Below are positions 17,498 through 49,889 of a stretch of 64,000 bases of DNA, piece after piece. Each line of letters starts with the position of its first letter. Position 1 is the first letter of the stretch. Made by a program: the position numbers and the translations under genes. This DNA is from Puniceicoccaceae bacterium (GTDB lineage Bacteria > Verrucomicrobiota > Verrucomicrobiia > Opitutales > Oceanipulchritudinaceae): contig JBFOMH010000032.1 of assembly GCA_040830765.1 (NCBI GenBank), positions 1 through 64,000 on the forward strand, written 5' to 3'. Under the pieces are notes generated by a model that was not told where the DNA came from, searched no databases, and saw nothing but the letters and a program-made list of their open reading frames with translations.

Positions 17498-18883
17498 TCA
17501 ATCCCCATCCACCCAGAGGATATTCCGGGTCATGTTCTTCGAAGCCGGTTTTTCCCCTGAGGGGGTAATGATCTTAACATTCTTGAGAAGAATATTTTCG
17601 GCGTTGGAAATCACCCCGGGAGCCGCCGCCTCAATGGTCACGTTTTCGAAAAAGATGTTGCGCACCGGAGCATCCTCCAGTCCGTAAATTTCCAGACCTT
17701 CGTCGGGGCAGGCTTCCACCTTCAGGTTGCGGATGGTGATGTTGCGGAAGAAGGGCAGGCCGTCCTCCGGGGGCACCGGTTCGGCCAGCTTGTGCCAGTG
17801 GTCCGGGTACTCCTTTCCTTCCTCAAGCACTTCCCCATAGCTGTAGGCGGGGAACCAATTGGACTCAAACTTGACCGGGTTCTTTACGTTGACCATCTCA
17901 TTGTCGAAAATATCGATGGCTTCGACGACGCCACCGCGCGTACGGGCTGACTTGAAGCGGATTCCGAAGATCGTTCCGATGGCCTTGTTGTTGTAGACCT
18001 TGACATTGCGGATGCTGCCGGAGGTTTCGCTGCCACAGGTGAACATGCCCATTCCCCGCCGAGCGATGTTATTGCGGATGATGATATTTTCCGTCGGCAG
18101 GTTGACCGCGATACCATCCGAGTCGCGACCCGACTTGAGGGTTATATTGTCGTCATTGCAGTCGATGTCACAGTTCTGGACGATGACATTCCTTGAGGAG
18201 TCCATGTTGACCCCGTCCGTGCTGGGCCCGAATCCTTCCTTCTCCGGGACACCGTCGATATTGTTGCGTATCGTCAGCCCATCAACGAGGACGTTCTGGG
18301 AGTAGACGATGTGACACGTCCAGAAGGCGGACAACTTCAGGTGCAGGTCGCGGATTTCCACATTTTCGCAGTTGTAGATCTGGATCAGCAGCGGACGTCC
18401 GACATCGTAGTCAACAACCCAGCGCAACCCCTTGGCGGAGTATTCCTCCTGCATCTCCCAATACCATGGCCAGAAGTATTCATTGCCCCGGCCATTGATG
18501 GTGCCCGTTCCGGAAAGCTTCACGTTGTGCCGGCCGCGCGCATTGATGAGGGCGGCTGGCCACTCCATTTCAATCCCTGCCACACGTGTCCAAAGCTTCG
18601 GGTAGTCCTCGGGGTCGATGGAACCGACCAGCTCCGCTCCCTCGGCGACATGAAACTCGACGTTGCTTTTCAGGAAGAGGGGGGAAACAAGGTACTTGCC
18701 CGGGCCGACTACCACCCGTCCGCCACCGTCCCGTGCGCAGACATCGATGGCACGCTGGATGTGCTCAGTCGTCAGGGTGGAACCGTCGGAGATGGCCCCG
18801 AAGTCAGAGACAGGGTAGTCCCGGGCGTTGAGGCCTGTGCAGCAAGTCATTAGGAGGATAGTAATAAATTGAAGGGATTTCAT
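17498..18883 (-). CDS. GH28 polygalacturonase/alpha-galacturonidase
   Basis: STDG, CNDDNITLKSGRD, CGSE, GIRFKS motifs; signal peptide. Confidence 0.9.
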   Translation of the reverse strand: MKSLQFITILLMTCCTGLNARDYPVSDFGAISDGSTLTTEHIQRAIDVCARDGGGRVVVGPGKYLVSPLFLKSNVEFHVAEGAELVGSIDPEDYPKLWTRVAGIEMEWPAALINARGRHNVKLSGTGTINGRGNEYFWPWYWEMQEEYSAKGLRWVVDYDVGRPLLIQIYNCENVEIRDLHLKLSAFWTCHIVYSQNVLVDGLTIRNNIDGVPEKEGFGPSTDGVNMDSSRNVIVQNCDIDCNDDNITLKSGRDSDGIAVNLPTENIIIRNNIARRGMGMFTCGSETSGSIRNVKVYNNKAIGTIFGIRFKSARTRGGVVEAIDIFDNEMVNVKNPVKFESNWFPAYSYGEVLEEGKEYPDHWHKLAEPVPPEDGLPFFRNITIRNLKVEACPDEGLEIYGLEDAPVRNIFFENVTIEAAAPGVISNAENILLKNVKIITPSGEKPASKNMTRNILWVDGD

Positions 18884-18898: not shown

Positions 18899-20026
18899 TT
18901 ACTGCGTTGAGAAGCGATGGATGGTTTTTGTGCGATAGGTCTCACCCGGATTGAGACGGGTTGAGGGAAAGTTTGCCTGGTTGGGTGAATCCGGAAAGTG
19001 CTGGGTCTCGAGACACAATCCGTAACGGAAGTGGTAGATCGCGCCTCCTTTGCCTTTCAGCGTCCCGTCGAGGAAATTGCCGCTGTAGAACTGGATGCCC
19101 GGTTCTTCTGTCCAGATTTCCATCTCCCTCCCGCTGTCGGGATCATAGAGGCGGGCGGCAAAGTTCAGCGTCGCCTCCTCGTCGGTGTTGAGCACCCAAT
19201 TGTGGTCGTAGCCACCTCCGAGGAGAAGCTGTTCAAAGTCGGATTCAATACGCGATCCAATGGGCCGTGCCATGCGGAAGTCCATTGGAGTGCCTTCCAC
19301 GGGTGCCAGTTCCCCGGTCGGGATAAGCCCGCTGTCCACTGGCGTGTAGCGGTCCGCATTGAGGGTCAGTTCATGGTCGAGGATGGTCCCGCGTCCCTGG
19401 CCGTGGAGATTGAAATAACTGTGATGGGTCAAATTGACGACGGTGGGCTGATCACTGGTGGCCTCGTAGGTAATGACAAATTGATTCTTGTCGTCGAGTG
19501 TGTAGACAACCGTGGCGGACAGGTTTCCGGGATAACCTTCTTCTCCATCCGGACTGGTATAGCGGAAGGTAACCGAGGCGGAATCTTCTGTGCTGGAGGG
19601 TTCGGATTGCCACAAGACCTTGTCAAATCCCTGGTTCCCCCCATGGAGGTGGTTTTCGTTGTTGTTGATCGTCAATTGGTAGGAAATTCCGTCGATCTCG
19701 AACTGTCCCTTGCCGATGCGGTTACCGTAGCGACCCACGACACAGCCAAAGTAAGGCGTTTCGATCAGGTAATCCTCCAGCTTCTCATAGCCGAGAACGA
19801 CATCACCCAGGTTGCCATCCCGGTCGGGGACATGCAGTTCGGTAACGATGGCCCCGTAGTCAGTGACCTTGAGGACCAGCCCGTTGCTGTTGGTCAGGGT
19901 GTAGAGGCGCGCTTCGCTGCCATCGGGAAGTTGACCATAGGTGGCTTCCTTGATGCTGGGCGCTGAATGAAGGAGCGTACCAATGAGGAGGCAGGAGATA
20001 CAGGCGAGTGGTTTGAGTGTATTCAT
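18899..20026 (-). CDS. galM: Aldose 1-epimerase (mutarotase) with signal peptide
   Basis: GRYGNRI, HLHGG, EEGYPG, NLTHHSYFNL, YDHN, CLETQHFPDSPN. Confidence 0.92.
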   Translation of the reverse strand: MNTLKPLACISCLLIGTLLHSAPSIKEATYGQLPDGSEARLYTLTNSNGLVLKVTDYGAIVTELHVPDRDGNLGDVVLGYEKLEDYLIETPYFGCVVGRYGNRIGKGQFEIDGISYQLTINNNENHLHGGNQGFDKVLWQSEPSSTEDSASVTFRYTSPDGEEGYPGNLSATVVYTLDDKNQFVITYEATSDQPTVVNLTHHSYFNLHGQGRGTILDHELTLNADRYTPVDSGLIPTGELAPVEGTPMDFRMARPIGSRIESDFEQLLLGGGYDHNWVLNTDEEATLNFAARLYDPDSGREMEIWTEEPGIQFYSGNFLDGTLKGKGGAIYHFRYGLCLETQHFPDSPNQANFPSTRLNPGETYRTKTIHRFSTQ

Positions 20027-21315
20027 GATTCAGTAGTGGATGATTCTTGTTTGGGAGGGTTGTTTTTCCAATAATTGGCCAGGATGGATCCGGAAATATT
20101 CATCCATGGACTAAAGACCGCCGAGGCCAGGCCGAGTGTTCCCAGCTTGCCCATCGAACCGGCAATGCCGGAGGCCATGCCACCATTTTGCAGGCCGACC
20201 TCCAGCGCCATCGCCCGGGCAGATTGCTGGTCGAGACCAAGCAGGCGGCTGAGCCAGAACCCAAGGACATATCCGGTGGCGTTGTGAAGGACCGAGGCAA
20301 GGAAGAGAAGGAGTCCTATCTGCAGCAGCTGTTCACGGCCGGCGGCAGTCGTCACGGTAGTGAAATAAACGATACCGGCCATTGAAATATACGGCATGAG
20401 GCTGTCGAGGCGCCGGATCAGCAGGGTAGCGCCGTGGTAGAGGAGCCCGAACAGGACGGCGCCGGCAAAGTAGCCCAGGATGGCGAGGGAGGCTGCAGCC
20501 TGCTCATTGAAGCTGGCCTTGATCCACGCAGCACCGCCCGCAAGGAGGATAACCAGATAGGCTGCAGAGAATCCCGCCAGCACATAGACATTGCGCCTGC
20601 CTTGACTACTGCAATGGCGCAGGAAGTCGTGCAGCAGTGCAGCCCCAATGGGGACCAGGACAATCTTGATGATCTGCAGCATCATCTTCAGGAAATCGAT
20701 CTCGATAAGCGTCCCGGCCAGCATCTTCATCAGGAAGGGGGTGCAGAAGGGCGCCAGCAAAGTGGCGCAGGCCGTAACCGTGATCGAGAGGACAAGGTTG
20801 GCCCGGGCCAGGTAGGTCATGACGTTCGAGGCGAGGCCGCTGGAACAGGAACCAATGAGAATGATACCCGCCGCGATCTCCGCCGGAAAACTGAAGACCT
20901 TTGTCAAAATCAAGCCGGAAACCGGCATGATGGAGAACTGGCACAGGAGGCCAACAAATACCCCTCTTGGTGAGCGGCTGATGCCCTTGAAATCCGTGGT
21001 GTGCATCTGCGTCCCCATGCCGAACATGACCGCCTGGACGACCAACAGGACCAGGACCGGGTTGCGCAAGTCAAATTCGCCCCAGCTCAGGAAGGCGGCA
21101 GGGTAGGCCAGTCCTGCGACAACAGCGGTGACGATCCAGGCGGTGTACTGGTATCCTTTCCATTTCTCAAGCGCTCCCAGTCCAAGGGAGAGGCAGACAC
21201 TGGATGCCAGCAGGGCCGCGTTCCACAGGGTCTGGTTCTGGAGGAACAGGCCGAGCAGGACTGTCAGGCCGGCAAGGGCGCTGGCATAGAGACAGGACTG
21301 GCGTAGAACCTTCAT
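20023..21315 (-). CDS. Bile acid:sodium symporter (BASS) family transporter
   Basis: MFGMG, QFSIMP, SSGLASNVMTYLA, EVGLQNGGMA; polytopic membrane protein. Confidence 0.85.
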   Translation of the reverse strand: MKVLRQSCLYASALAGLTVLLGLFLQNQTLWNAALLASSVCLSLGLGALEKWKGYQYTAWIVTAVVAGLAYPAAFLSWGEFDLRNPVLVLLVVQAVMFGMGTQMHTTDFKGISRSPRGVFVGLLCQFSIMPVSGLILTKVFSFPAEIAAGIILIGSCSSGLASNVMTYLARANLVLSITVTACATLLAPFCTPFLMKMLAGTLIEIDFLKMMLQIIKIVLVPIGAALLHDFLRHCSSQGRRNVYVLAGFSAAYLVILLAGGAAWIKASFNEQAAASLAILGYFAGAVLFGLLYHGATLLIRRLDSLMPYISMAGIVYFTTVTTAAGREQLLQIGLLLFLASVLHNATGYVLGFWLSRLLGLDQQSARAMALEVGLQNGGMASGIAGSMGKLGTLGLASAVFSPWMNISGSILANYWKNNPPKQESSTTES

Positions 21316-21980
21316 TTATCAGAATCGAGTTGGCCCGCCAGCCATTGCATGGCCAGGGCGGGACTGGATAAAATTGGAACCCGGCACTCCTCTGCCGGAA
21401 TGGTGTCCACGACACGAGCCATCGAGGCTTGGGCAAGGAGGATGACATCACAGTCCGCCATCAAGGCGAAGAGACCCTCACGGACGCTTGCGTCATGCGC
21501 TTCAGGATCGCCTGACATGAGTGCCTCAAACGCGCCTTCGCAGAGATGCGATTGAACGTCGATTTCCTTGAGGGCAGTCTTGGCTACCCGTTCGACGAGA
21601 TTCCTGGTCGGCTCAAGAGTGGTGGGCAGTGTGGCAATAACTCCAATCCGACTGCCGCTGGCAACGGCCTTTTCGGCCATCGCCTGATCCACCCGGTAGA
21701 CTGGCACGGAGACAAAGAGGCGCGAGGCCTCAACAGCTGCCCCTATGGAAGAACAGGTGACAAGGATCCGCGTGGCCCCGCTCCCTTCCGCCTGTCGCAC
21801 AAGTTCTGCCACCCGCCAGGCGACATCCGGGGTCAGGCATCCGCTGGCGATGACATCCTTGATAAGGCTGTCGTTGGCGATGTGGAAGGTTGCCACTCCT
21901 GGAAGGGAATTGCTGGCCAGGTCCGTGAATAAGGGAACCAGGGTGGCGGAGGTGTGGATAAAGGCTATTTTCTCTTCCAT
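21312..21980 (-). CDS. Asp/Glu/hydantoin racemase superfamily protein (single-Cys type)
   Basis: IAFIHTS, ILVTCSSIG, RVDQAM, IGVIATLPTTL; ILLAQASM has Gln at the second Cys position. Start MEEKIAF at 21980. Confidence 0.75.
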   Translation of the reverse strand: MEEKIAFIHTSATLVPLFTDLASNSLPGVATFHIANDSLIKDVIASGCLTPDVAWRVAELVRQAEGSGATRILVTCSSIGAAVEASRLFVSVPVYRVDQAMAEKAVASGSRIGVIATLPTTLEPTRNLVERVAKTALKEIDVQSHLCEGAFEALMSGDPEAHDASVREGLFALMADCDVILLAQASMARVVDTIPAEECRVPILSSPALAMQWLAGQLDSDK

Positions 21981-21982
21981 AA

Positions 21983-23386
21983 TTACAAGGTCAGGAGGTG
22001 GCATTGGCTATGGGATGCGGCTTTGATGAAGTAATCTGGCGTTCCGATTTGGCCGCCCTTGAAATTGATTTCTTTTCCATCAAGCTTAGATCCGGCGGCG
22101 TGTATGCGGCAAAACGGGGCCCCGCGGACAAAGGGCTGACTGACAGTCATGGCCTCAATGCCCATGGCGGCTGCGACATGTCCGGACGTGTCCCCACCGG
22201 CCACTACGATACGTTCCAAGCCCGTTTGCTCGATCACTTGATGTGCGATCGATCCCATGGCTGTCCCGAGAATACGCGGCACTTCAGACCCAGCTGCCTG
22301 CTCGCTGAAACGTTTCCGGATGGCTGCCCGGGTGTAACGGGTGCGTCCGTCATCCGGACCGGAATAGGTGTGCAGAATGGCACTCTTTTTGTCCCGCATC
22401 ATCCGGTTAATTCGTTCCACTGTGTTGGAAATGACCGCCTCTTCATTACCGGCAAATATCCCGACGGTATCAAGGGCCAGCTCGGCAAAGCCGGCCTTCG
22501 TCGCTTCCTGGATCTGATTGACAGTCACTGGCGAGCAACTGCCTGAGAGGACGAGGATTGGTTCATCGTAAGCCCCTTCTGCAGTAGCGGGTTCTGGCGG
22601 TGTCGGCCGGTTATCACGCCATGCATGAGCCAGGGCGTATTCCACAGCGGATGAACCGACCGAAAAAAGTGTCCCCTCTTCCGGCACATTGTCTTCCATC
22701 AAGAAACCGGGAATCGACAAGTCAGACTCGACAAATGCGTCGAAGAGAACCGCCTCGGTATAGCCGTCTGCGAGCAAGGTTGCCAGGGCCTCGGAGGCTT
22801 GAGCTCGCTCCATCCGGCAGTGGAAGATATCGAAAAGAGCCGTTTCCCAGCCAGCTTGTTCCTTCAATCTCAGGCGGATATCACTTTCCCGTGCCGGTGT
22901 CACTGGATGATGGGCCATCGACGGGTGCCGGTCCAACCGGTAGACAGGGCTGATATCCCCGGTACCAAGTCGCGCAAACAAGTGTCCGAAAATGCAATAC
23001 CGCCCGAGGTCAGGAACCCCGATCAGGACAGGGACAAACTTCGATTTGAAACAGGCAGCACCAACCCGCATGGCAACCCCAATATTGCCCGTTTCCGGGG
23101 ATGAATCAAAAGTTGAGCATACCTTGTAATGGCAGTGCCTTGGATTGATGGAGCGGATGAAATCAAAGACCGGCTCGAGGGTTTCCCGCATCCTGTCCGG
23201 TCCCATGGTCCGGGTTGTCCCTGCGATGCCAAACGCCTCGAGATCCTCAAATGCGGCTAGTTGCTCTTTGGTCGGGACATTCGGAAAAAGCGCTGTCCGG
23301 ATTCCGGCAAGATGTAATAATTCCAAGGCGTCCGTGGACCCGGTGAAGTCGTCCCCGTAGAACACAAGTTGGTTTCGCGTGGGCAT
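21983..23386 (-). CDS. Four-carbon acid sugar kinase (DUF1537), 3-oxo-isoapionate kinase OiaK-like
   Basis: YGDDFTGSTD, HYKVCSTFDSS, HPVTP, SGSCS, AGGDTSG, KGGQIG. ATG 23386 directly follows the RLP stop. Confidence 0.85.
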   Translation of the reverse strand: MPTRNQLVFYGDDFTGSTDALELLHLAGIRTALFPNVPTKEQLAAFEDLEAFGIAGTTRTMGPDRMRETLEPVFDFIRSINPRHCHYKVCSTFDSSPETGNIGVAMRVGAACFKSKFVPVLIGVPDLGRYCIFGHLFARLGTGDISPVYRLDRHPSMAHHPVTPARESDIRLRLKEQAGWETALFDIFHCRMERAQASEALATLLADGYTEAVLFDAFVESDLSIPGFLMEDNVPEEGTLFSVGSSAVEYALAHAWRDNRPTPPEPATAEGAYDEPILVLSGSCSPVTVNQIQEATKAGFAELALDTVGIFAGNEEAVISNTVERINRMMRDKKSAILHTYSGPDDGRTRYTRAAIRKRFSEQAAGSEVPRILGTAMGSIAHQVIEQTGLERIVVAGGDTSGHVAAAMGIEAMTVSQPFVRGAPFCRIHAAGSKLDGKEINFKGGQIGTPDYFIKAASHSQCHLLTL

Positions 23387-23387
23387 C

Positions 23388-24638
23388 TTAATTCTGGCTC
23401 CCTCCAAATTTTTCCATAGCCTTGCGCAGTTCAGGTTTTTCGGTTGCCGCCTCTTCCAGGGGAATACCGGCAATGGCACATTCCCAGGCCTGGCGAATGG
23501 CCGTCACGCCTCCAGCCGGACCGTCCGGGTGGGCCATGATTCCCCCTCCAGCAAGGTAAAGGAGGTCTGTGGTCTGAGTCAGCTTGTAGGTTTCCGGGGC
23601 CTGGCCGCCCCATTGACCCGAGGAAATGACTGGCATGACCGGTCTCAGGTTATGCCAGTCCTTACGGCACTCAGTGATGGATGCGACCACGGACTCGTCG
23701 GGTTCCCAGAACTTGTTCGCGATACCATTGACATGCAGTTGGTCGATTCCGGCCAGGCGCCAGAACTTCTGGTAGGCGGCAAAACCCATGCCTGTTGCCG
23801 GTTGACGGTTGAGCATACCCCAGCCATTCCGGTGACCGTGGAGAACGAAACGGCCCTCGTCGGCTATTGCCTTGACGGCGGCAAAGCCGAGGGGATTCAC
23901 GCTGAGCATGGCGCAGGTCCCGCCAAGGGATTCCAGATGGTCACAGTTACGCCGCATGACATCCAGTTCATCCGTGATGTTGGCGGCGTAGATAACCTTC
24001 TTGCCCGTTTCATCGAAGTGCCGCCGGATTTCCCCGAGGATGGCTCGTGTCCGTTCCTTGAAAGGCGAGTGGGGAGGATTGCCCATGAGTTCGTCGTCCT
24101 TTATGAAATCAATCCCCGCCGGCAACAACTGCCGTACCAAGGCAGCAGTGGCTTCTGGTGAAAGGCCCACACTGGGCTTGATGATGGTGCCGACGAGTGG
24201 GCCTTCCTGGCGTCCTGCTGCGGCAAGTGTTCCCGCAATTCCGTGGGAAGGACCCTTGAACCGGGCGCTTACCTCTGCTGGCAAATCAAAATCCAGCAAC
24301 CGGATACCGGAGAGTTGTGCCAGCTCATAAAGGTTCCCCTGCAGGGTGGAGAGGAGGACAGGAATATTGTCACCCACATTTTCCGCGGGCCAGGAAATGC
24401 GCACATGGGCCCGGTTGTAAGTCCCTGCTGCGGGCCGGGAACCGGGCAGGGAAGGTTCATTGACCGAATCAAGGACCTCCACTTCCTCCACCCGGGCGGC
24501 GAACTTCTCTTTCAGGGAAGTCGTCTCACCCGGCACCTCGACGAAGGTCCCGCTCGATTGCTCGCCGGCAATCGATTCAGCGGCCTTCTTCGGCTCCAGT
24601 GGGGTCTCAATCCAGTAAGTGGCTGATATGCGGTTCAT
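23388..24638 (-). CDS. RuBisCO-like protein (form IV), OiaT/OiaX-like
   Basis: AGEQSSGTF, GTIIKPSVGL, GIDFIKDDE (carbamyl-Lys motif), HGHRNGWG, SSGQW, GGGIMAHP. Start MNRISATY at 24638. Confidence 0.9.
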   Translation of the reverse strand: MNRISATYWIETPLEPKKAAESIAGEQSSGTFVEVPGETTSLKEKFAARVEEVEVLDSVNEPSLPGSRPAAGTYNRAHVRISWPAENVGDNIPVLLSTLQGNLYELAQLSGIRLLDFDLPAEVSARFKGPSHGIAGTLAAAGRQEGPLVGTIIKPSVGLSPEATAALVRQLLPAGIDFIKDDELMGNPPHSPFKERTRAILGEIRRHFDETGKKVIYAANITDELDVMRRNCDHLESLGGTCAMLSVNPLGFAAVKAIADEGRFVLHGHRNGWGMLNRQPATGMGFAAYQKFWRLAGIDQLHVNGIANKFWEPDESVVASITECRKDWHNLRPVMPVISSGQWGGQAPETYKLTQTTDLLYLAGGGIMAHPDGPAGGVTAIRQAWECAIAGIPLEEAATEKPELRKAMEKFGGSQN

Positions 24639-27402
24639 GGTTCTTGTCCGGATGGTCGGGTTCGCAGGGAATGCGGAAAGTGTAATGCCCGGATGGCAAA
24701 TGGACTGTGAGGCCTCCATCCGCTTGCTCAGTTACCTTACCTTCAGCGTCATCCTTGAGCGGCTGCCCCGACTCGGTTATGAGCTCTGCTGTTCCCCAAG
24801 GGAAACAAACGTCCGCCGAGCTGTTGGCCGGGATCTCAACGGACCACTCGAGCAGGGTGTCCTCTACATACCTCCAGTGACTACGGATGCGTCCATAGGG
24901 AGAGGTGTATTCTCCCTCGGCCCATTGCAGGGAGGGATGAGGATGCGGTTTTAAAATAAAGGTCTGGAAACCGGGTTCGTTCGGTTTGTAGTTAATACCC
25001 GCTACATGGCTGTAGAGCCATTCCCCGATGGAGCCGAGTGAGTAATGGTTGAAGGAATTCATGTGGGCATCGAGGAAGCCATCCTCCTCAGTCCAGGCAT
25101 TCCAGCGCTCCCAGATGGTAGTGGCCCCGTGCCGGACAGGATAGAGCCACGACGGATAGTCATCCTTTAGCAGCAGCTCGTAGGCAAGGTCGGCATGGCC
25201 ATAGTCGGTTAGGATCGGGTTGAGGAAACGGATTCCGATGAATCCCGTACTGAGGTGCTTATCGAGCGAACGGATATTGTCGACAAGGTGGCCAACGGCC
25301 TTCGCCCGGAGTTCCGCCGGGAGGAGGTCCATGGCCAAGGCAAGCAGGTAAGCGGTCTGGGTATCGACCTCAAGCGATCCATCCGGCCGAACGTAGGCTT
25401 CCTGGAAGGCATCCCGGACGCGGGTAAAGGTCTGCTCGAAGCGTACGGCTTCCTCTTCCCGTCCGAGTTCCCTGGCCATTTCCGCCATCTTGCTGGCATC
25501 ATCGGCCCAAAAGGCCGTAGCGAGCAGATTCTTCAGCGGCGAATGGGTCCGGAACGTTGTATCCGATGGTATGCTGAGCCAGTCCCCGTAGTTGTTGGCT
25601 AGTTCGTTGATCCGCAGGCCGTCCGGGTTGGTCCGTTCAATGTAATCGAGCCAGGCGGTCATGGCATTCCAGTGGCGCTCGATGATGCGGCGGTCACCAT
25701 AGACCTTCCAGATGGTCCACGGGATGATAACCCCGGCATCCGCCCAACCGGGACTTCCGCCAAGGCCATCGAGGCCAATGAAATTGCCATCCTCCGGAAG
25801 GCGGGGAGCGGTGTCGGGAAAGATGCCATTCTCCGTCTGGGCATCCTCAACATCGACCATCCATTTGGTAAAGAACGCGGCCACATCCATGTTGAAGGCA
25901 GCTGTGCGGATAAAGACTTGGGCATCTCCCATCCATCCAAGGCGTTCGTCGCGCTGGGGACAATCGGTCGGGACACTGAGGAAATTATCGATCTGCGACC
26001 ACAGGCCGTTGAGCCAGAGTCTGTTGACCCCCTCATGTGAGCAGGAAAAGCTGCCGCTTTGCGGCGTGGCCGACTGGACCACGCAGGCAGTCAGGTCGCC
26101 GCTCGAGGGTGCCTTGGAGAGACCGGAAATTTCGAAATACTGGAACCCGTGAAAAGTAAAGGACGGTTCCCAGGTTGCAGGACCCTGCCCATCACAGATG
26201 TACGTATCGGTCGCCCTGGCCCGGCGAAGATTTTCCGTGAAGAGGCTACCGTCGGCCTTGAGGCGTTCCCCGTGGCGGAGGACGATTGACTTACCAGCCG
26301 GCTCATCGACCCGTATCCGCATCCAGCCGGCGATGTTTTGACCGAGGTCACAGAGCCAGGTATCTTCACCGGTTTGGCGGATGGAAACGGGCTCCAGTTC
26401 CTTGATCACCCGCACTGGCTGCGATTGCTGGGCGACCAGAGGCACATCTGGTTGGTCGACTTCCAGAACCGGCAGCCAGTCCTGTTCATCGAACTGTGGC
26501 TGGTCCCACCCCTCCACCTGGCGGCGGTTGTCGCAGGTCTCGCCCATCATGAAGTCAGAGAAGAGGATGGGGCCGGTGTTACAGCGCCAGGATGAGTCGG
26601 TGCTAACGGTCGTAACCGTGCCATCATCCATTTCCAGCTCCAGCTGGCAGATAAAGCTGTTGGTGAGTCCATACTGGCCCCGCGTTTCCTGCCAGCCGAC
26701 ATAACCGCTGAACCAACCATCACCAAGAATGGCTGCGAGCACATTCTCTCCTTCCTGCAGCAGGGAGGTAACGTCGAATGTCCGGTAATGGATCCGTTTG
26801 CGGTAATCGGTCCACTCGGGCAGGAAGCGGTCCTCTGTTACTTCCGTCCTATTGATCCGGAGTCGCAGCAAGCCGCGGCCACTCGCATAGAGGATTGCCC
26901 GCTTCGGTCTGGCTGATGCAGTGATATTTTTCCGGAAGTAACCCGGGCTGGAACAGGTTGTCCAGTCGGATGGACTTGCCTCCTTGTCCCGGGCAATTGC
27001 CTCCGGATTCAATCCGATCCAATCCGTATTCCAGTCAGATGTCTCCAGCAGGCCGATGCTAAAGAAGGCGGGCCCGGAAGCGACTTCCAACCCAGTCTCG
27101 TCCCTGACGACAACCCTCCAATAAACGTTGGCTCGCGAGGTCAGCGCCTTTCCCTCGCAGGCAATCTGGGTGCTCTGGCTACCTTCGATCCAGCCGCTGT
27201 CCCAGATGTCAGTTTCCCCGGATTCAAGTAACCCTGCCTCGCTGGCGGCGAGGATACGATAGGCTACCTGTCGCTTGCCCCGCTGGTCGGACTGCATCCG
27301 CCATGCCAGGCGCGGTTGGACCGTGTCAATGCCCAACGGGTTGACAAGATATTCGCAGGTCAGATCCGAGAGGGTAAAGGATTGCTGGGAGTCGGTAGCC
27401 AT
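24607..27402 (-). CDS. GH78 alpha-L-rhamnosidase, no signal peptide
   Basis: LTCEYLVNPLG, DLGQN, FTFHGFQY, PTDCPQRDERLGWMGD, GATTIWERW, MNSFNHY. Confidence 0.93.
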   Translation of the reverse strand: MATDSQQSFTLSDLTCEYLVNPLGIDTVQPRLAWRMQSDQRGKRQVAYRILAASEAGLLESGETDIWDSGWIEGSQSTQIACEGKALTSRANVYWRVVVRDETGLEVASGPAFFSIGLLETSDWNTDWIGLNPEAIARDKEASPSDWTTCSSPGYFRKNITASARPKRAILYASGRGLLRLRINRTEVTEDRFLPEWTDYRKRIHYRTFDVTSLLQEGENVLAAILGDGWFSGYVGWQETRGQYGLTNSFICQLELEMDDGTVTTVSTDSSWRCNTGPILFSDFMMGETCDNRRQVEGWDQPQFDEQDWLPVLEVDQPDVPLVAQQSQPVRVIKELEPVSIRQTGEDTWLCDLGQNIAGWMRIRVDEPAGKSIVLRHGERLKADGSLFTENLRRARATDTYICDGQGPATWEPSFTFHGFQYFEISGLSKAPSSGDLTACVVQSATPQSGSFSCSHEGVNRLWLNGLWSQIDNFLSVPTDCPQRDERLGWMGDAQVFIRTAAFNMDVAAFFTKWMVDVEDAQTENGIFPDTAPRLPEDGNFIGLDGLGGSPGWADAGVIIPWTIWKVYGDRRIIERHWNAMTAWLDYIERTNPDGLRINELANNYGDWLSIPSDTTFRTHSPLKNLLATAFWADDASKMAEMARELGREEEAVRFEQTFTRVRDAFQEAYVRPDGSLEVDTQTAYLLALAMDLLPAELRAKAVGHLVDNIRSLDKHLSTGFIGIRFLNPILTDYGHADLAYELLLKDDYPSWLYPVRHGATTIWERWNAWTEEDGFLDAHMNSFNHYSLGSIGEWLYSHVAGINYKPNEPGFQTFILKPHPHPSLQWAEGEYTSPYGRIRSHWRYVEDTLLEWSVEIPANSSADVCFPWGTAELITESGQPLKDDAEGKVTEQADGGLTVHLPSGHYTFRIPCEPDHPDKNHEPHISHLLD

Positions 27403-27423
27403 GGGTCCGGAAGCGGGGACTTC

Positions 27424-27606
27424 CTAATTGTCGTCAAGACTGGTACTGTGCATCCAGAAAGGAGCGGAGGAAAACCAGGCAACCATGCCAATCAGCATCA
27501 GGGTATACTGGAGGGAGTTGTCGATAACGCCGATGAGGACAAGCGCCCCGGGAATCAAGGTCAGGGCAAGACCGGTAAATGAGATAAGTTTCAATATGTT
27601 ATTCAT
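27424..27606 (-). CDS. Small two-helix membrane protein
   Basis: 60 aa with two hydrophobic segments; fills the gap between the permease and GH78 on the same strand. Confidence 0.65.
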   Translation of the reverse strand: MNNILKLISFTGLALTLIPGALVLIGVIDNSLQYTLMLIGMVAWFSSAPFWMHSTSLDDN

Positions 27607-27620
27607 GGGAATGTAATTTA

Positions 27621-29081
27621 TTAGGAGTTAGTCGATGCAGGATGACGACGCTGTTGCAGCCAGGAGAAGAAGAGATACAGGGAGACGGCGAGGATCCATT
27701 CCGGGCCAACCATGAACAGCAGGTCTACCTTGATGGCAGCCAGCCAGTCCGGTTGCCAGGGAGCGACCAGCTTGTTCATCCAAGCGTAGTGGTCCTTGGC
27801 GTACATGAAGAATGAAAATCCGAACGAGATGATCCAGGCCAGCAGGGCAGGCCAGCTTAACAGCTTGCCTGTTTTCTCGATGTAGTTACTGACCATGCCA
27901 AGGCGGGGAAGGATCCAGACATCAATGAAGATACAGGCTCCCAGAGGCATGAAGAAAAGGCCGTAGAAGCCTACGATCCGGTCGAGGTTCCGGTTGACGT
28001 CGGGAATGCAGGCCGTGATGACCATGAAGGCCCCGGCGGCAAAGGTTACCTTCCAGCGCTGCCAGTTGGGTGTCGCCACCTGAATGGCGAGGCCGGCCCG
28101 GTAGAGGGTCGGATTGGCGGTTGTCCACCCGGCAATGACAACACAGACCGCACCGGCGACGCCCGCCCCAAGCAGGGCGATTTCACCGGGGGTTGTATTC
28201 CCCATGGCGGCGGCGCAGAGGATGGCGGAAGCGATCCAGGCAAGAAAGTGTCCGATGTACATGCCGAAGGCGGAAGCAAAGCCACTGGTCCACTTTCTGG
28301 CGTAGCGGAAAATGGTGACATCCGACATTCCGATGTGCTGGGTGGCATTGCAAAGCCAGGCAAAACCCATCACATGCCAGAAGGTGTACTTGGAGAATCC
28401 GGGTAACGGTTCCCCGGTAAAGATCCGTTCCTTGAAGGCCGGCCAGATTTCCCCGAACGAATGGACGTCCAGCATCGGGAGGACAGCCATGCCGGCGGAG
28501 AGAAAGACCAGTGCCATCCAGGGGGCGCAAATCTTGGAGAACTGGGCCAGTTTCTCGAAACCGAGGACGGCCAGGATGGCGATGACGGAACCGACCACCA
28601 GCGCCAGCAGCATCCATGGCACGCTGGGGAACATGTCCTGCGGCCCCGGATTCTGGATGCCGGGAAAGACCAGGGAAACGGCGGTTACCGAGACGTTGAC
28701 CATGGCACCAGCCAGCAGGCAGAGGACGATGGCATAAAAGACGCTATAGGCGACGGTAATGTAGGGACCACACATCTTGCGCAGCTGCCAGTAGATGGTG
28801 AGGCGGGTCCTGACCGCAACCGGGGCACAGAGGAGCGCCCAACTGAGGACGGCAAGAAGGTTGCCGACAAGCAAGCCTCCGAGGAAGTCGGTCGCCGTTA
28901 CCCCGTGGGCCAGCATGAGCGGACCGAGGACAAATTCCGTTCCGGCAACGTGCTCGCCGGCGAACATGGCGATAAAGGTCTTGTGTCCATGTAGCTTTTT
29001 TCCGGCAACAGGTTCCCGGTCGTATTCGTAGAGGGCGTCCAGGCGCTCTACGATTGTGTGTTGGGATTCATCATGACTCAT
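27621..29081 (-). CDS. NCS1 (purine-cytosine permease) family transporter
   Basis: About 12 TM helices; FAGEHVAGTEF, GWTTANPTLY. Confidence 0.75.
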   Translation of the reverse strand: MSHDESQHTIVERLDALYEYDREPVAGKKLHGHKTFIAMFAGEHVAGTEFVLGPLMLAHGVTATDFLGGLLVGNLLAVLSWALLCAPVAVRTRLTIYWQLRKMCGPYITVAYSVFYAIVLCLLAGAMVNVSVTAVSLVFPGIQNPGPQDMFPSVPWMLLALVVGSVIAILAVLGFEKLAQFSKICAPWMALVFLSAGMAVLPMLDVHSFGEIWPAFKERIFTGEPLPGFSKYTFWHVMGFAWLCNATQHIGMSDVTIFRYARKWTSGFASAFGMYIGHFLAWIASAILCAAAMGNTTPGEIALLGAGVAGAVCVVIAGWTTANPTLYRAGLAIQVATPNWQRWKVTFAAGAFMVITACIPDVNRNLDRIVGFYGLFFMPLGACIFIDVWILPRLGMVSNYIEKTGKLLSWPALLAWIISFGFSFFMYAKDHYAWMNKLVAPWQPDWLAAIKVDLLFMVGPEWILAVSLYLFFSWLQQRRHPASTNS

Positions 29082-29126
29082 AGGGGTGTTTTTTGGTGTT
29101 ATTGTTTATGAGGTACCGGAACGGAT

Positions 29127-31190
29127 TCAGCGGAGTGGTATCCAGACGGTCATGTCGTGGTCGCCGCGGTTTCCCCATGCATAATAGGGTATCCAGCGGG
29201 TATCGATTGATTTCAGCTTCTGCGGGCGCAGTGGGCGGTAAAGTTGATTCTCGTCCCACTGGGAGCGGTCGATGACCGTGGCAGGCAGCTCGATGGAGAG
29301 CATCTCCGCATCCTCGACCTTGACCGGCTTGAGCCCGGCGGAGCCGGTGGAGTCCACCTCGAGGGCGACGTCGAGAATATTGACGCCCTCCGGCAGGTCG
29401 ACGGATTCAAGGCAATAGACCAGGGGACCGTACTTGAGGGCTACCTGGTTGGCTGTTTCCTCGACAAGGGGATTGGCCTCCCAAAGCTCCGGCTGCAGCT
29501 GCAGTTGCAGGCTGATGGAGTCGCCCGGTTGCCACTGGCGTTCAATGGAGTGGTAGGTGCCGGGGAGCAATGCCTCCCCGCAGTCTTCCCCGTTGACGGA
29601 GAGGGAGGCGCCTCCGGTGGCCAGCCATCCGGGAATTCTCAGCTTGATGGTTGCCGGATGGTCCGGGGCTTCCTTGATGGAGAGTTTGATGGAACCGTTC
29701 CAGGGATAGCCCGTTTCCTGAATCAGATGCAAGGGGCTGCCGTCGGGCAGGACAGTATCCAGTTCGCTGGGACCGTAGAGGTTCACCCAGACGGTGTCTT
29801 CCGACAGGCTGTAGACGTAGTTTTGGACCTGTGCCAGCGTCCGGATGACATTGGGAGGGCAGCAGAAACTGCGGGGAATGTTGGGCTCACGCGTGCGCGA
29901 CCAGCGCAGGGGCCAGTCAAAGGCGTCTACCTTCTGAAGGGCGTTGACGTAGAAGTAGTGGGTGCCATCGAGGCTGATTCCCGGCAGAACTCCATTATAA
30001 AGCGAGTTCTCGAACAAGTCGGCATAGCGGGCTTCGCCTGTCAGCATCAGCATGCGCCAGTTCCACATGGCGTAGCCGATGGTGGCGCAGGTCTCGTTGT
30101 AGGCCGTCTTGTTTGGTAGTTGATAATCGATACCATAAGCCTGGTGGGTGGTCTTGATGCCTTCGTGGTCCTTGGTGCCGTACGGGGAGGCACCATCGTA
30201 GAGGGCCCCGGTCATGCCGGTGATATAAAGCTTCTGCCCGGCGACGTCGTCGGCGATTGTCTCCAGCGTCTCGAGAATCGTGTCATCACCGGACTCCGTG
30301 TAGACATCCGCCGCCCCGGCATAGAGATAGTTTGCGCGGACGGCATGGCCGACAGCCTCCTCCATTTCACGGAACGGTACACGGTCCTGGTTGTGGTCGG
30401 AACCGTCATCGACAAGGTCCCGGATCTCGATGAGCTGCTTTGCCAGTTCGAGGTAACGGGGCTCCCGCGTGGTGCGGTACAGCTCAACAACTCCCATGTA
30501 GTGGGACGGGCAAATGGCATTTCTGGCTAATTCCGGGGAGGAGGTCTCGTAGAAATTGTAGAGGTAGTCCGCCGCCTTTCGAGCCAGTTGCAGCATGCTG
30601 GTCTTGCCCGTGGCCCGGTAATGGACGCAGGCCGTCGTCATGAGGTGCCCCATGTTGTAGGTCTCGAAGTGGTAGCGGTCGAGAAACTGGTTGGCCCGGG
30701 TCTGTCCCTGTCGTTCCGGAATGATGTTCTGGGTATGAAGATACCCGTCTTCCCGCTGGGCGAGGCCGACCACATGAATGATCCGGTCCATGAGGCTGTC
30801 GATCTCCGGATCCCGGGTTATGGCATAGACACTGGCCATGCCCTCGAACCACTTGAGAAAGTCACCATCATTAAAGGGAGGGCCATGGAACTTGCCATCC
30901 CGGCCATCATCAAGTCCGGCGGCGAGGAGGAAGTTGGCCCAGGCATGGCTTCCATGCTCGTCCTGGAATATTTCCCACATGTAAGGAATCATGGTGTCCT
31001 GGAGGACCTGAAAGCGGTCACCCCAGAGGCCGCCGGTCCAGTGGGCGTCATCCAGCTCCACCATCCGCATGACAGCCATGGGCGAATGGGTGGTATCGAT
31101 GAGGCAGTTTTGGCCGGCCTGAAGGCCTGTGGAGAGGACCACCGGAAAGGTTAGAAGAAGTGTAACTCGATGCAGAATAGATTTGGTCAT
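29127..31190 (-). CDS. GH127, aceric acid hydrolase (BT1003-like)
   Basis: GHAVRANYLY, YNETCA, FCCPPN (GH127 Zn/Cys site); HFETYNMGH and NAICPSHYMG match my recall of BT1003-type enzymes; signal peptide. Confidence 0.8.
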   Translation of the reverse strand: MTKSILHRVTLLLTFPVVLSTGLQAGQNCLIDTTHSPMAVMRMVELDDAHWTGGLWGDRFQVLQDTMIPYMWEIFQDEHGSHAWANFLLAAGLDDGRDGKFHGPPFNDGDFLKWFEGMASVYAITRDPEIDSLMDRIIHVVGLAQREDGYLHTQNIIPERQGQTRANQFLDRYHFETYNMGHLMTTACVHYRATGKTSMLQLARKAADYLYNFYETSSPELARNAICPSHYMGVVELYRTTREPRYLELAKQLIEIRDLVDDGSDHNQDRVPFREMEEAVGHAVRANYLYAGAADVYTESGDDTILETLETIADDVAGQKLYITGMTGALYDGASPYGTKDHEGIKTTHQAYGIDYQLPNKTAYNETCATIGYAMWNWRMLMLTGEARYADLFENSLYNGVLPGISLDGTHYFYVNALQKVDAFDWPLRWSRTREPNIPRSFCCPPNVIRTLAQVQNYVYSLSEDTVWVNLYGPSELDTVLPDGSPLHLIQETGYPWNGSIKLSIKEAPDHPATIKLRIPGWLATGGASLSVNGEDCGEALLPGTYHSIERQWQPGDSISLQLQLQPELWEANPLVEETANQVALKYGPLVYCLESVDLPEGVNILDVALEVDSTGSAGLKPVKVEDAEMLSIELPATVIDRSQWDENQLYRPLRPQKLKSIDTRWIPYYAWGNRGDHDMTVWIPLR

Positions 31191-31206: not shown

Positions 31207-32685
31207 TTAATGGAGAAGGGCTTGGCGGATGGCCGAAGACCATCCTGCGTAAAGTTTCTGTTTTTGTTGGTCGTCCATCGCCGGGGAATAAACCGGCTCA
31301 TTACCGGCAGGTTCGGGCAGTGATTCCAAGTCGGCTATGGTGCCGGTCCCGATCATTCCCATGAGGGCGGAACCGAGTGGTGAACCGTCGGCGACACTGC
31401 TCACGCGGACCGGAATCTGTGTCATGTCGGCTATGAACTGCATGAGGAACCGGTTTGCAGTGGGGCCTCCATCGGCATGGACCGCTTTGAGTTCGAGGGA
31501 GGAGCTGGCTGCCATGGCATCGAGGGCATCCTTCAACTGGTAGGCAATGGCCTCAAGGGCTGCGCGGACAACATGCCGGCGGTCGCTATGGCTGCTCAAT
31601 CCGGTAATCAAGGCGCGTGCATTGGGGTCCCAGTGCGGCAAGCCGAGCCCGGTAAAGGCCGGTACGAGGTAGACACCCCCGTTGTCATCGATCTCGGTGG
31701 CCAATGATTCGGACTCGGCGGCATCAGCAAGGATGCCCAGTTGTGATTTCAGCCACGCCAGAGTGGAGGCGGAGCTGACAATGATCCCCTCCAGGGCATA
31801 GGTGGCCTTGTTCGAGCGGACCCAACCAAGGGTGGTCAGGACACCATTGTCCGAGAGGGAGGCCGCCTCACCAATGTTCATGAGAATCGATGAGCCGGTG
31901 CCGAGGGTTACCTTGGTCATTCCCGGGCTGAAGCAGCGCTGGGCGAATAGGGAAGCATGGGAGTCTCCCATAACGCCGCAAATGGGTGTTCCGTTCAGGG
32001 GTTCACAGTCCGCCACTTCGCCGAACGTGGCATCGCAATCCCTGATTTCCGCAAGGGCTTTACGGGGAACTCCCCAGAGATCGCAAAGGTGGTCATCCCA
32101 ATCCCGCTCCGTGATGTTGTAGAGAAGGGTGCGGCAGGCGTTAGTGTGGTCCGTCGCGAAGACCCTGCCCCGGGTGAGGCGATAGATGAGATACGTGTCG
32201 ATCGTCCCGACGAGGGCCCGGCCCTCCTCGAGTTGTTGAGTCAGTCCGGGGTTGGCCTCAATCAACACCTGTAACTTGCTGGCGGAAAAGTAGGGATCGA
32301 GCGTCAATCCTGTCCGTTGGTGGACATCGGGCTCCGCGCCACTTTCCTTGAGCTTCTGGCAGGCATCTGTTCCCCGGCGGCATTGCCAGACGATGGCAGG
32401 GTAGAGCGGTTCTCCGGTTTCGCGGGAGAAGACAACGACCGTTTCGCGCTGATTGGAAATGCTGAGACAGCGCACGCCGGACGGGTCGTTGCACTGGGCC
32501 GCTGCTTCTTCCAGGACGGCCAGGGTGTTGGCGTAGATTTCCCCGGCATCCTGCTCAACGTATCCAGGTTGTGGATACGATTGCCCGTGTTCCTTGGATG
32601 CCCGGGCCAGGACGCTGGCATTCCCGTCTAGGAGAATGGCCTTGGTGGCGGAAGTACTTTGGTCAATGGAGAGGAAACAGGGCAT
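31207..32685 (-). CDS. aplK: FGGY kinase, probable apulose kinase
   Basis: IDQSTSATK, SNQRET, IVWQCRR, GDSHA, PAFTGLG, DGG; follows a split transketolase and an isomerase. Confidence 0.7.
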   Translation of the reverse strand: MPCFLSIDQSTSATKAILLDGNASVLARASKEHGQSYPQPGYVEQDAGEIYANTLAVLEEAAAQCNDPSGVRCLSISNQRETVVVFSRETGEPLYPAIVWQCRRGTDACQKLKESGAEPDVHQRTGLTLDPYFSASKLQVLIEANPGLTQQLEEGRALVGTIDTYLIYRLTRGRVFATDHTNACRTLLYNITERDWDDHLCDLWGVPRKALAEIRDCDATFGEVADCEPLNGTPICGVMGDSHASLFAQRCFSPGMTKVTLGTGSSILMNIGEAASLSDNGVLTTLGWVRSNKATYALEGIIVSSASTLAWLKSQLGILADAAESESLATEIDDNGGVYLVPAFTGLGLPHWDPNARALITGLSSHSDRRHVVRAALEAIAYQLKDALDAMAASSSLELKAVHADGGPTANRFLMQFIADMTQIPVRVSSVADGSPLGSALMGMIGTGTIADLESLPEPAGNEPVYSPAMDDQQKQKLYAGWSSAIRQALLH

Positions 32686-32704: not shown

Positions 32705-33709
32705 TCATGTCTTGGGGATCAGCTTCATGGCTGCCTGGGAAAGGCCTTCCATGGATATGCCATAGTGACGGAATATATCGGCCTGGCTTCCGGTTACGGT
32801 GTATTCGTCAGGAATGCCAATACGTTGGAACGGCTTGTGGACACCGGCTTCCATGAACAAGCCAGCGCAGGCTTCCCCGAGTCCACCGTTGACCATGTGT
32901 TCCTCAACGGTGACCACGGCGCTGCAGGTGCGGGCGCCTTCCAGAATGGCCTCCGTGTCGAGGGGCTTGATGGTCGGAAGACTGAGGACAGATGCCTCGA
33001 TTCCGGCCTCCTTGTGCAGTAGCTCGGCTGCCAGCCAGGCATGGATGACCGTTTCGCCGGTGGCAATAAAGAGGATGTCCTTGCCGCTGCGCAGAGGCCG
33101 CGCTTGGCCGATTTGGAAAGGCTTATTCCCGGGAAGATCATATTGGGCCGCTTTCCCAAAGCGCAGATAGACAGGACTTTCCAGGTTGACTGCCTGCCTG
33201 ACCGCTTCGGCGGTCTCGAAGTTGTCCGCGGGGACGAGGATGGTGAGATTGTTGATAGCCCGCAAGGCCGCCAAGTCATGCAGGGAATGGTGAGTCGAAC
33301 CGAGGGCACCATAGCTGACACCGGCACTGATGCCAACGAGCGTTACGGGGTTGTCTGAGTAGGCGACGTCGTTCTTGATCTGTTCCAGCGCTCGTGCCGA
33401 GAGGAAGCAGGCGGGTGAGACTGCCAGGGTTTTCTTGCCTGTTGAGGCAAGGCCGGCTGCGACGCCGACGAGGTTTTGTTCGGCAATGCCCATCTCGACA
33501 ATCTGGTCCGGCAGAGCTTCCCCGAAGGGCTTCAGTTTGCCTGAACCGCGGGAGTCACTGGTCACGACCAGCACATCGCGATCGGCTCTTGCCAACTCGA
33601 GGGCGGTCTCAGCAAAAACCTCGAGGTTGGGCCGTCCGAGCTTGAGGCCAGTCTCCTTAATCAGGCTGGCTGCCGCTTCGCTGAACAGGGATGGGGCGGG
33701 TGCGCTCAT
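32705..33709 (-). CDS. aptB: Transketolase C-terminal subunit, probable apulose-4-phosphate transketolase B
   Basis: SDSRGS, GIAEQN, GSTHHSLHD, PVYLR, EEH...GGLG. Confidence 0.75.
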   Translation of the reverse strand: MSAPAPSLFSEAAASLIKETGLKLGRPNLEVFAETALELARADRDVLVVTSDSRGSGKLKPFGEALPDQIVEMGIAEQNLVGVAAGLASTGKKTLAVSPACFLSARALEQIKNDVAYSDNPVTLVGISAGVSYGALGSTHHSLHDLAALRAINNLTILVPADNFETAEAVRQAVNLESPVYLRFGKAAQYDLPGNKPFQIGQARPLRSGKDILFIATGETVIHAWLAAELLHKEAGIEASVLSLPTIKPLDTEAILEGARTCSAVVTVEEHMVNGGLGEACAGLFMEAGVHKPFQRIGIPDEYTVTGSQADIFRHYGISMEGLSQAAMKLIPKT

Positions 33710-34548: not shown

Positions 34549-34556
34549 CGGTTTGT

Positions 34557-47059: not shown

Positions 47060-47062
47060 GAT

Positions 47063-49779: not shown

Positions 49780-49834
49780 GGGAGCGAGGATTGTGGAATG
49801 GTCGCGGGATGTGGAGACAGATGAATTACATGTC

Positions 49835-49880
49835 ATAGAATTTCATGAAATAGGTTCTGTCAACTCTCTTATTTCATAAA
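49835..49880 (-). promoter_or_regulatory. Promoter -35 element with operator palindrome
   Basis: TTGACA on the minus strand 49863-49858; ATTTCATGAAAT 49840-49851; a related site TTATTTCATAAAA at about 49869-49881. Confidence 0.6.
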
Positions 49881-49889
49881 ATAGCCATA

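Follow-up and report, generated by a model that had tools for sequence, protein, structure and literature searches.

We describe a minus-strand operon of a Puniceicoccaceae bacterium (Verrucomicrobiota; assembly GCA_040830765.1, contig JBFOMH010000032.1, positions 1 to 64,000; this 64,000-nucleotide stretch is called the window, and coordinates are those of its forward strand). The operon joins the gene of a GH127 protein, a probable aceric acid hydrolase, to a cassette encoding a RuBisCO-like protein (RLP), a DUF1537 kinase, a one-cysteine protein of the Asp/Glu-racemase fold and a BASS transporter. Genome context and residue patterns support the original prediction, made from this DNA alone, of an aceric acid pathway that runs through the RLP, and we consider it likely that the cassette is a catabolic route for this sugar of rhamnogalacturonan II (RG-II). 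Aceric acid is given as 3-C-carboxy-5-deoxy-L-xylose in the accessible part of PMC3355719. Gene identities, conservation, co-occurrence and residue patterns were observed directly, and from these we infer every substrate and reaction proposed below.

In the proposed scheme the operon would dismantle and consume the core of RG-II side chain B, aceric acid-rhamnose-apiose (AceA-Rha-Api). GH127 would free aceric acid outside the cytoplasm, the permease would import the remaining Rha-Api and GH78 would split it, after which apiose would pass through an isomerase, a kinase and a transketolase. Aceric acid itself would be imported by the BASS protein. Since aceric acid has no primary alcohol for a DUF1537 kinase, aldose-ketose isomerisation must come first, and the racemase-fold protein would convert it to the 2-ketose, on chemical grounds the methyl homologue of 3-oxo-isoapionate. 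The kinase would then phosphorylate the new CH2OH group, and the RLP would either move the carboxyl group and hydrolyse the product to 3-phosphoglycerate and L-lactate, or decarboxylate it to 5-deoxy-pentulose 1-phosphate.

A probable aceric acid hydrolase in an RG-II operon

ORF positions and Pfam matches confirmed the seven genes named in the original prediction (31190..20023), in the order given there: GH127, permease, GH78, RLP, kinase, racemase-fold protein and BASS. They are as tightly packed as it had claimed, and from GH78 through the aldose 1-epimerase (GalM) gene adjacent genes overlap or lie at most 2 bases apart. The run is longer than it had claimed, however, with transcription proceeding from 35975 to 17498 (Table 1). 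Four further genes 5' of GH127 (35975-31207), coding for a FucI/AraA-like isomerase, a split transketolase and an FGGY kinase, form a probable apiose route that had been overlooked, and the 3' end extends through GalM and GH28 to 17498. Likely start positions are 24638 for the RLP, 23386 for the kinase and 21980 for the racemase-fold protein. An 8-bp hairpin lies at 17477-17458, 3' of GH28; terminator-like sites overall were at chance level (18 versus 17.1), and neither the promoter nor the terminator scan gave an excess over chance.

On NF049879, the model for aceric acid hydrolases, the GH127 of the window reached 942.5 bits, just under the cut-off of 950. On the same model orthologues from Verrucomicrobiota and Planctomycetota scored 800-965 bits and arabinofuranosidase-type proteins less than 525. 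Against known structures it scored 693 bits with PDB 5MQO, which we take to be BT1003, and 378 bits with the best arabinofuranosidase. Its Q350 (HQAYG) aligns with a Gln of 5MQO (HQSYG) and a Glu of 4QJY (ESF); this is presumably the acid/base position, and where the residue is Gln the carboxylate of the substrate would take over its part. E366, C368, C443 and C444 are retained, and Gln is present in 29 of the 35 GH127 rows from related loci, the remaining 6 being fragments or members of other subfamilies. The scores and the Gln thus bear out the assignment as BT1003-like, and rule out an ordinary beta-L-arabinofuranosidase or a carrageenan-type relative. A second GH127 of the same genome (C12:55630-57618; 40% identity, 690 bits on NF049879, no match to the HQ motif) has sulfatase-like neighbours and probably acts on algal galactan.

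Around the operon the window is an RG-II locus, with a BT0996-like GH2 (1216 bits on NF049877), a BT1020-like gene, GH141, GH28 and pectate lyases. The Bacteroides thetaiotaomicron RG-II system with BT1003, reportedly described by Ndeh et al. in 2017, has the orthologous GH127 with its Gln in a locus likewise containing BT0996-like, BT1020-like, GH141, GH78 and GH28 genes. There, however, no RLP is present (PF00016 had no match in this species in our control panel) and aceric acid is secreted, whereas in the window catabolic genes stand in one operon with that of the hydrolase. The parts available of PMC10850190, PMC5698469 and bioRxiv 10.64898/2026.03.13.711244 name BT1003 as an aceric acid hydrolase, and the last, in the same part, reports that B. 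thetaiotaomicron secretes free aceric acid.

RuBisCO-like protein, kinase and racemase-fold protein

The RLP is the only one in the genome by a PF00016 search. It has the marks of the Oia subgroup of form IV RLPs, namely the RuBisCO large-chain fold, KDDE, HR, the loop-6 Lys and an adjacent DUF1537 kinase, and carries the motifs GEQSSGT, QGNLY, KDDEL, GHRNG and QLHVNGIANKF. Like OiaX it belongs to this subgroup and has a kinase partner (474 bits on the OiaX model NF042437, 47% identity), but it lies under the cut-off of 700 bits, which the OiaX-type proteins of loci L084 and L108 exceed (777 and 788), and does not match the OiaX residue set (SDQ, GG, KDDEK, QFQ). At the positions where both OiaX-equivalog proteins have D, G, K and Q it has E25, N101, L183 and H301. 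We assume that E25, N101 and H301 correspond to E60, N123 and H327 of RuBisCO. An IMG-named OiaT (P0074) matches the window RLP at all six motifs examined, and Q99, Q107, Q299 and others are residues of its own clade. The Rhizobium OiaX of L108 has TPI and RpiB as neighbours; here, in contrast, neither they nor an aldolase were among the recurring locus clusters inspected.

According to the accessible part of PMC6302742, RLPs of Agrobacterium and Xanthobacter decarboxylate 3-oxo-isoapionate 4-phosphate or transcarboxylate and hydrolyse it. Of the two corresponding outcomes that had been offered for the window RLP, the residue pattern points to the OiaT-like over the OiaX-like one. We hold an OiaT-type reaction giving 3-phosphoglycerate and L-lactate to be reasonably likely, and decarboxylation to 5-deoxy-pentulose 1-phosphate to be possible but less probable. 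The genome holds LutB/C-like lactate genes and two class II aldolases, so either product would be usable; a search of it for FMN-dependent lactate dehydrogenase gave weak partial matches only. The kinase scored 372 bits on the OiaK model (NF042436, cut-off 700) and 171 bits on OtnK, and the 4 ApnO-linked kinases tested were also under the OiaK cut-off (424-575 bits). The kinase/RLP pair may also accept 3-oxo-isoapionate, so that the RLP may carry out a known reaction on a new substrate. The claim of a new pathway is consistent with the literature searched, in which we found no aceric acid catabolic route (most subscription papers were outside its coverage), but the accompanying claim of a new RLP reaction may be too strong.

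In the racemase-fold protein, H9-T10-S11, C76-S77-S78 and Q184-A-S-M are invariant in 66 of 66 alignment rows. The site of the second Cys of two-Cys Asp/Glu racemases is Q184 in every row, C76 is the sole invariant Cys, and the two opposed cysteines of those racemases are therefore not present. The predicted structure (predicted local distance difference test score 96.3) matches 1JFL (Z 21.0, root-mean-square deviation 2.6 over 209 residues, 13% identity). The protein shares its fold and the Cys motif of the N-terminal domain with the Asp/Glu/hydantoin racemase superfamily (MurI, AspR, allantoin racemase, arylmalonate decarboxylase, maleate isomerase), but it differs in having Gln in place of the second Cys (LAQASM), HTS in the first loop and at most 20% identity to the listed structures. 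We know of no precedent for an aldose-ketose isomerase in this fold; a single Cys base would suit a 1,2-proton shift, as in RpiB, which has a different fold. The racemase-fold gene occupies the position that ApnO has in apionate loci. Because it encodes the only conserved enzyme of the cassette without another role, and the cassette has no redox enzyme, we propose it as the isomerase, a choice between it and some other enzyme that had been left open. If aceric acid is the substrate, we slightly favour its isomerisation by this protein with C76 as the single base. Another racemase-fold protein of this genome (C11:89232-89909, 38% identity) is divergent from a GntR-like regulator gene, with no RLP or kinase nearby.

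Distribution of the cassette

The original prediction had noted that the window holds no ApsD, ApnL or ApnO. For ApnO and ApnL the absence extends to the whole genome (completeness 96.93%). A PF16896 profile search for ApnO found 0 matches in the genome; this profile was also without a match in our standard control panel, and as its own positive control it matched in 10 of 30 other genomes. Likewise, tblastn of the genome with 4 ApnO and 3 ApnL queries found no match at E<=1e-3, although these queries recover 43-72% relatives in fetched loci and the ApnL query from L084 scores 672 on NF049900. The absence of ApsD is likely but not clean, because one Gfo/Idh/MocA protein on contig C27, in an unrelated context, is 33-34% identical to ApsD queries, while ApsDs assigned by context are 37-67% alike. 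By these searches the genome lacks both the ApnO and the ApnL lactonase that mark the oxidative apionate pathway.

That D-apionate route, with ApnO, OiaK and OiaT, was reportedly described by Carter et al. in 2018. The window resembles it in the DUF1537 kinase next to a form IV RLP, in the E/N/H active-site pattern common to ApnO-linked RLPs free of TPI and RpiB and to the IMG-named OiaT, and in the proposed 3-oxo-acid 4-phosphate substrate. It differs in lacking the apionate entry enzymes, in whose place it has BASS and the racemase-fold protein with its single Cys, and further in an RLP of its own clade, lactate in place of glycolate as the proposed co-product, and a proposed entry that would be redox-neutral.

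We compared the best 80 of 569 confirmed RLP loci, which span Bacteroidota, Verrucomicrobiota, Planctomycetota and others. The kinase is present in 79 of them, the racemase-fold protein in 65, BASS in 57, GH127 in 34 and the FucI-like gene in 7. GH127 lies directly upstream of the RLP in 25, and any other cluster in 4 at most. ApnO is inside 5 of the 80, none of which has a racemase-fold gene. Among 80 metagenome loci centred on the racemase-fold gene, 75 extend far enough upstream to hold the kinase, and 63 of these have it. For the RLP the count is 42 of 47, for BASS 69 of 80 and for ApnO 0 of 80. A tree of 100 RLP rows (quick method, midpoint root, long outgroup branches; duplicates L089, L097, L098 and L100 excluded) placed the window RLP in an 82-row clade (Shimodaira-Hasegawa-like approximate likelihood ratio test support 99) with no in-locus ApnO; all ApnO-linked RLPs are outside this clade, as are L053, L079 and L082. 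In nine loci of Sphingobacteriaceae (L006-L008, L013, L015, L021, L025, L027, L029) a module of solute-binding protein, Gfo/Idh/MocA protein, MaoC-like dehydratase, MFS transporter and sometimes CoA-transferase III recurs upstream of the cassette.

At the genome level, 61 of the 65 genomes with a racemase-fold gene in the RLP locus have a hydrolase scoring at least 700 bits on NF049879, and 3 have ApnO elsewhere; among 8 ApnO genomes without an in-locus racemase-fold gene, 1 has the hydrolase. In evenly drawn samples from which the centre genome was left out, the RLP was found in 7 of 250 genomes of its own phylum, all among the 8 with NF049879 scores of at least 850 bits (five more, at 590-762 bits, are RLP-free), in 5 of 300 genomes of Bacteroidota, all among the 9 over the cut-off, and in 12 of 170 genomes of Flavobacterium, all among 30 that are hydrolase-positive. 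The co-occurrence put forward as a check in the original prediction thus held in all three samples (7/7, 5/5 and 12/12). Hypergeometric p-values (1e-10 to 1e-12) are given no weight, since they treat genomes as independent though kin are not. ApnO was found in 0 of the 20 RLP genomes tested from these samples, with G062 as the positive control, which together with the metagenome loci and the tree indicates that ApnO is not linked to the RLP clade. Neither of the refuting conditions named in the original prediction, linkage to ApnO or an ordinary arabinofuranosidase, was thus borne out. Moreover, 18 of 31 hydrolase-positive Flavobacterium genomes have no RLP, and a search of 5 genomes that have the hydrolase but no RLP found the racemase-fold gene in none. 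This nesting of the RLP in hydrolase-positive genomes indicates that the cassette is an accessory of RG-II degraders. The idea that the cassette RLP is shared with ApnO in G003 and G076 was dropped as unneeded, since in both a TIM-barrel gene lies beside ApnO; it is OiaC-like by context, with no NCBIfam match at 1e-30.

A divergent GH127/GH146-like subfamily was seen in Acidobacteriota and a sphingomonad (L079 8352-9965, L082 8175-9989, L199 1238-3058). Its members are 50-52% alike and 25-29% identical to the window GH127. In L079 and L082 the RLP gene has one of them as its direct upstream neighbour. In G072 the racemase-fold gene, which is separate from the RLP there, has such a neighbour instead. 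The subfamily may represent a second kind of aceric acid hydrolase. In L079 and L103 BASS is replaced by an MFS gene (59% alike) next to the racemase-fold gene. As a more tentative proposal, which we think possible though hardly probable in all its parts, three enzymes would suffice for a redox-neutral route that costs one ATP and loses no carbon: the one-Cys racemase-fold protein as a metal-free aldose-ketose isomerase, the DUF1537 kinase, and the RLP giving 3-phosphoglycerate and L-lactate. The isomerase would have joined kinase/RLP pairs of the ApnO type repeatedly (L053, L079, G072, Croceibacterium), accompanied in those cases by the second, unrecognised GH127 subfamily of aceric acid hydrolases.

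Alternative readings and neighbouring genes

Several observations weigh against aceric acid as the substrate or against the reactions assigned. Since all RG-II enzymes co-occur, the nesting points to RG-II and not to one sugar, and aceric acid is singled out only by adjacency and chemistry; of the 25 GH127-adjacent loci, moreover, 24 belong to Bacteroidota/Balneolota kin and are not independent events. Four of the 65 racemase-fold genomes (G002, G026, G077, G079; drafts) have no hydrolase of at least 700 bits, L067 has the RLP with neither racemase-fold gene nor hydrolase, and the divergent GH127 subfamily scores just 87-109 bits on NF049879. OiaT-type RLPs with a kinase and without ApnO also stand beside SDR, VOC or alcohol dehydrogenase genes, so the lack of ApnO alone does not mean aceric acid. 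The 13 Flavobacterium genomes with the RLP include all 8 that have the FucI-like gene, which connects the RLP with the use of apiose, and G056 and G072 each have a single RLP in a genome with both ApnO and a racemase-fold gene. The likeness of the ketose to 3-oxo-D-isoapionate is one of constitution; the quaternary carbon may have the same or the other hand. The window RLP is about equally far from the IMG-named OiaT (49%) and OiaX (47%), the name of this OiaT reference is automatic, and no OiaT model turned up in the NCBIfam scans. Finally, the fold matches of the racemase-fold protein include no aldose-ketose or other sugar isomerase, and homologues at about 45% occur in unrelated contexts.

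Part of the probability that we give to aceric acid as the substrate goes to a different entry chemistry, in which the racemase-fold protein would be a decarboxylase of the arylmalonate decarboxylase kind, an epimerase or a ring-opening helper and the ketose would be made by the FucI-like protein or by a reductase/dehydrogenase pair. Within that share we regard this as rather unlikely. The one-Cys members of the fold include arylmalonate decarboxylase (2VLB, Z 14.6), which works by a one-Cys mechanism, and the ketose would be a beta-keto acid, but if decarboxylation came first, neither a four-carbon-acid kinase nor an Oia-type RLP would find an acid to act on. L-xylo-like aldoses are substrates of FucI-family enzymes; the FucI-like gene, however, is absent from 73 of the 80 loci and from 5 of the 13 RLP Flavobacterium genomes, and the latter led us to reject its product as an obligatory aceric acid isomerase. 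An alcohol dehydrogenase replaces the racemase-fold gene in the Streptomyces locus L088. The recurring Gfo/Idh/MocA dehydrogenase of cluster 13 was rejected as part of the pathway: besides 13 of the 80 loci and all 5 RLP genomes tested, 5 of 5 RLP-free RG-II genomes have it too, and it was not found in this one. It (L065 3015-4106 and relatives) occurs in 10 of 10 RG-II degrader genomes tested, often with SSS and GH78 genes.

Two readings with other substrates seem to us less probable still than that. In the more doubtful one an apiose or apionate route independent of ApnO would use an unlinked dehydrogenase to make 2-oxo-apionate and the racemase-fold protein to make 3-oxo-isoapionate, followed by ordinary OiaK and OiaT. 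The best family matches are indeed OiaK and OiaX, 7-9 of the 80 loci have apiose genes next to the cassette, the FucI-like genomes nest in the RLP genomes of Flavobacterium, G056 has ApsD, ApnL and ApnO with a single RLP while its fetched stretch of 17 kb shows no OiaC-like gene, and the one RLP of G072 would serve both ApnO and the racemase-fold gene. This genome, however, has neither ApnL nor ApnO, a complete non-oxidative apiose route, by context, lies in the same operon, and no dehydrogenase follows the cassette in its distribution. NAD+ and two metals are required for the rearrangement by ApnO, according to the part of PMC13753588 available, and the racemase fold is without these. In the part of bioRxiv 10.64898/2026.03.13.711244 available, five Flavobacterium strains were grown on RG-II, and most of them secreted apiose and Kdo (3-deoxy-D-manno-octulosonate), though these strains may or may not carry the cassette. 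The other reading, which we also call improbable, takes the substrate to be some other branched or acidic sugar from RG-II-rich material: a hamamelose-type sugar, a 2-C- or 3-C-branched acid, or a product of Dha (3-deoxy-D-lyxo-heptulosarate), Kdo or an O-methyl sugar. The sugars of RG-II cannot be told apart by co-occurrence, hamamelose catabolism involves an RLP oxygenase to judge from a title cited in the accessible part of PMC10176493, and the ApnO-free RLP-kinase loci with SDR or VOC show that the pair is modular. Cassettes also stand alone outside glycan loci (L026, L042, L047, L053), but 3 of these 4 genomes encode a BT1003-type hydrolase at another site. For Dha there is a separate candidate module (43949-49836), no gene is next to the RLP as often as GH127 (24-25 loci, against 4 for any other cluster), and an isomerase, a kinase and an RLP without a redox enzyme fit a 3-C-carboxy aldose.

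The upstream four genes are a probable non-oxidative apiose route, by analogy with FucI-like homologues (54-67%) in Rahnella and Chondrinema, which lie with a split transketolase, a kinase and a DUF2291 ABC transporter and without an RLP; this transporter also marks ApnO/OiaX apiose loci. The accessible part of PMC13753588 lists one transketolase route and three ApnO routes for apiose. The window resembles the transketolase route in its isomerase, apulose kinase and split transketolase and in their context, but the isomerase here is FucI/AraA-like and assigned by context alone. A probable path of its own for apiose in the same operon strengthens the case for aceric acid as the substrate of the cassette. 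The permease has no Pfam or NCBIfam match. A 43% paralogue of it on contig C7 adjoins L-rhamnose mutarotase-like and fucose isomerase-like genes, and the 60-aa ORF, which directly follows the permease in L005, L116, L142, L144, L145 and L147, is a possible small transporter subunit. The GH127-transporter-GH78 arrangement is also found in G188, without an RLP. The rhamnose/fucose region of this genome (C7:50907-72375), with a kinase, class II aldolase, aldehyde dehydrogenase, LutB/C-like genes, a mutarotase and the permease paralogue, most of them named from their sequence, is a likely sink for rhamnose and lactate.

Elsewhere in the window (42142-51044, minus strand) LacI, an SSS transporter, an Fe-alcohol dehydrogenase, a dihydrodipicolinate synthase-family aldolase, a DtnK-like DUF1537 kinase and PdxA2 are followed by a BT1020-like hydrolase. 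These genes fit a conversion of Dha to pyruvate and D-threuronate, then D-threonate, then dihydroxyacetone phosphate and CO2; in L059 the same five Dha-module genes follow the RLP cassette. In other loci (L083, L087, L109, L113, L115, L088) an OiaT-type RLP and a kinase have no ApnO in the fetched stretch; their partners are SDR, VOC, hydrolase, TRAP and alcohol dehydrogenase genes, with pyruvate kinase in L113 and L115, and they are probably further undescribed branched-acid routes.

Table 1. Genes of the operon in transcriptional order, with the matches or context on which each name is based
Feature	Position	Strand	Basis
FucI/AraA-like sugar isomerase, probable apiose isomerase, first operon gene	34557..35975	-	PF02952; function inferred from context
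Transketolase N-terminal subunit, probable apulose-4-phosphate transketolase	33706..34587	-	PF00456; context
Transketolase C-terminal subunit	32705..33709	-	PF02779, PF02780
FGGY kinase (GlpK-like), probable apulose kinase	31207..32685	-	PF00370/PF02782; TIGR01311 535 bits, under cut-off 590
GH127, BT1003-type aceric acid hydrolase; signal-peptide-like N-terminus (by eye)	29127..31190	-	PF07944 E 1e-96; NF049879 942.5 bits
NCS1-like permease, 486 aa, probable rhamnose or Rha-Api importer	27621..29081	-	ESM Atlas 0.98 to purine-cytosine permease clusters
Small hydrophobic ORF, 60 aa, two-helix, probable permease partner	27424..27606	-	40-58% homologues in 7 fetched loci
GH78 alpha-L-rhamnosidase, no obvious signal peptide, probable cytoplasmic Rha-Api cleavage	24607..27402	-	five GH78 Pfam domains
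RLP, form IV, OiaT-type residue pattern	23388..24638	-	PF00016/PF02788; 3NWR E 2.5e-130
DUF1537 four-carbon acid-sugar kinase, OiaK-like	21983..23386	-	PF07005+PF17042
One-cysteine Asp/Glu-racemase-fold protein, proposed aceric acid aldose-ketose isomerase	21312..21980	-	PF01177
BASS sodium:anion symporter, proposed aceric acid importer	20023..21315	-	PF01758; PanS model 200 bits vs cut-off 400
Aldose 1-epimerase (GalM-like)	18899..20026	-	PF01263; found in just 1/80 related loci
GH28, last gene of run	17498..18883	-	PF00295

Aceric acid is among those RG-II sugars whose catabolism we did not find described in print, and if the proposal is true its genes are now named. It would explain why some RG-II degraders secrete aceric acid while others may use it, and would add one more substrate for the few characterised RLPs and a new reaction for the racemase fold. 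A relative of RuBisCO that adds CO2 back to an enediolate monophosphate of five carbons, with hydrolysis of the product to 3-phosphoglycerate, would be a close chemical model of RuBisCO itself.

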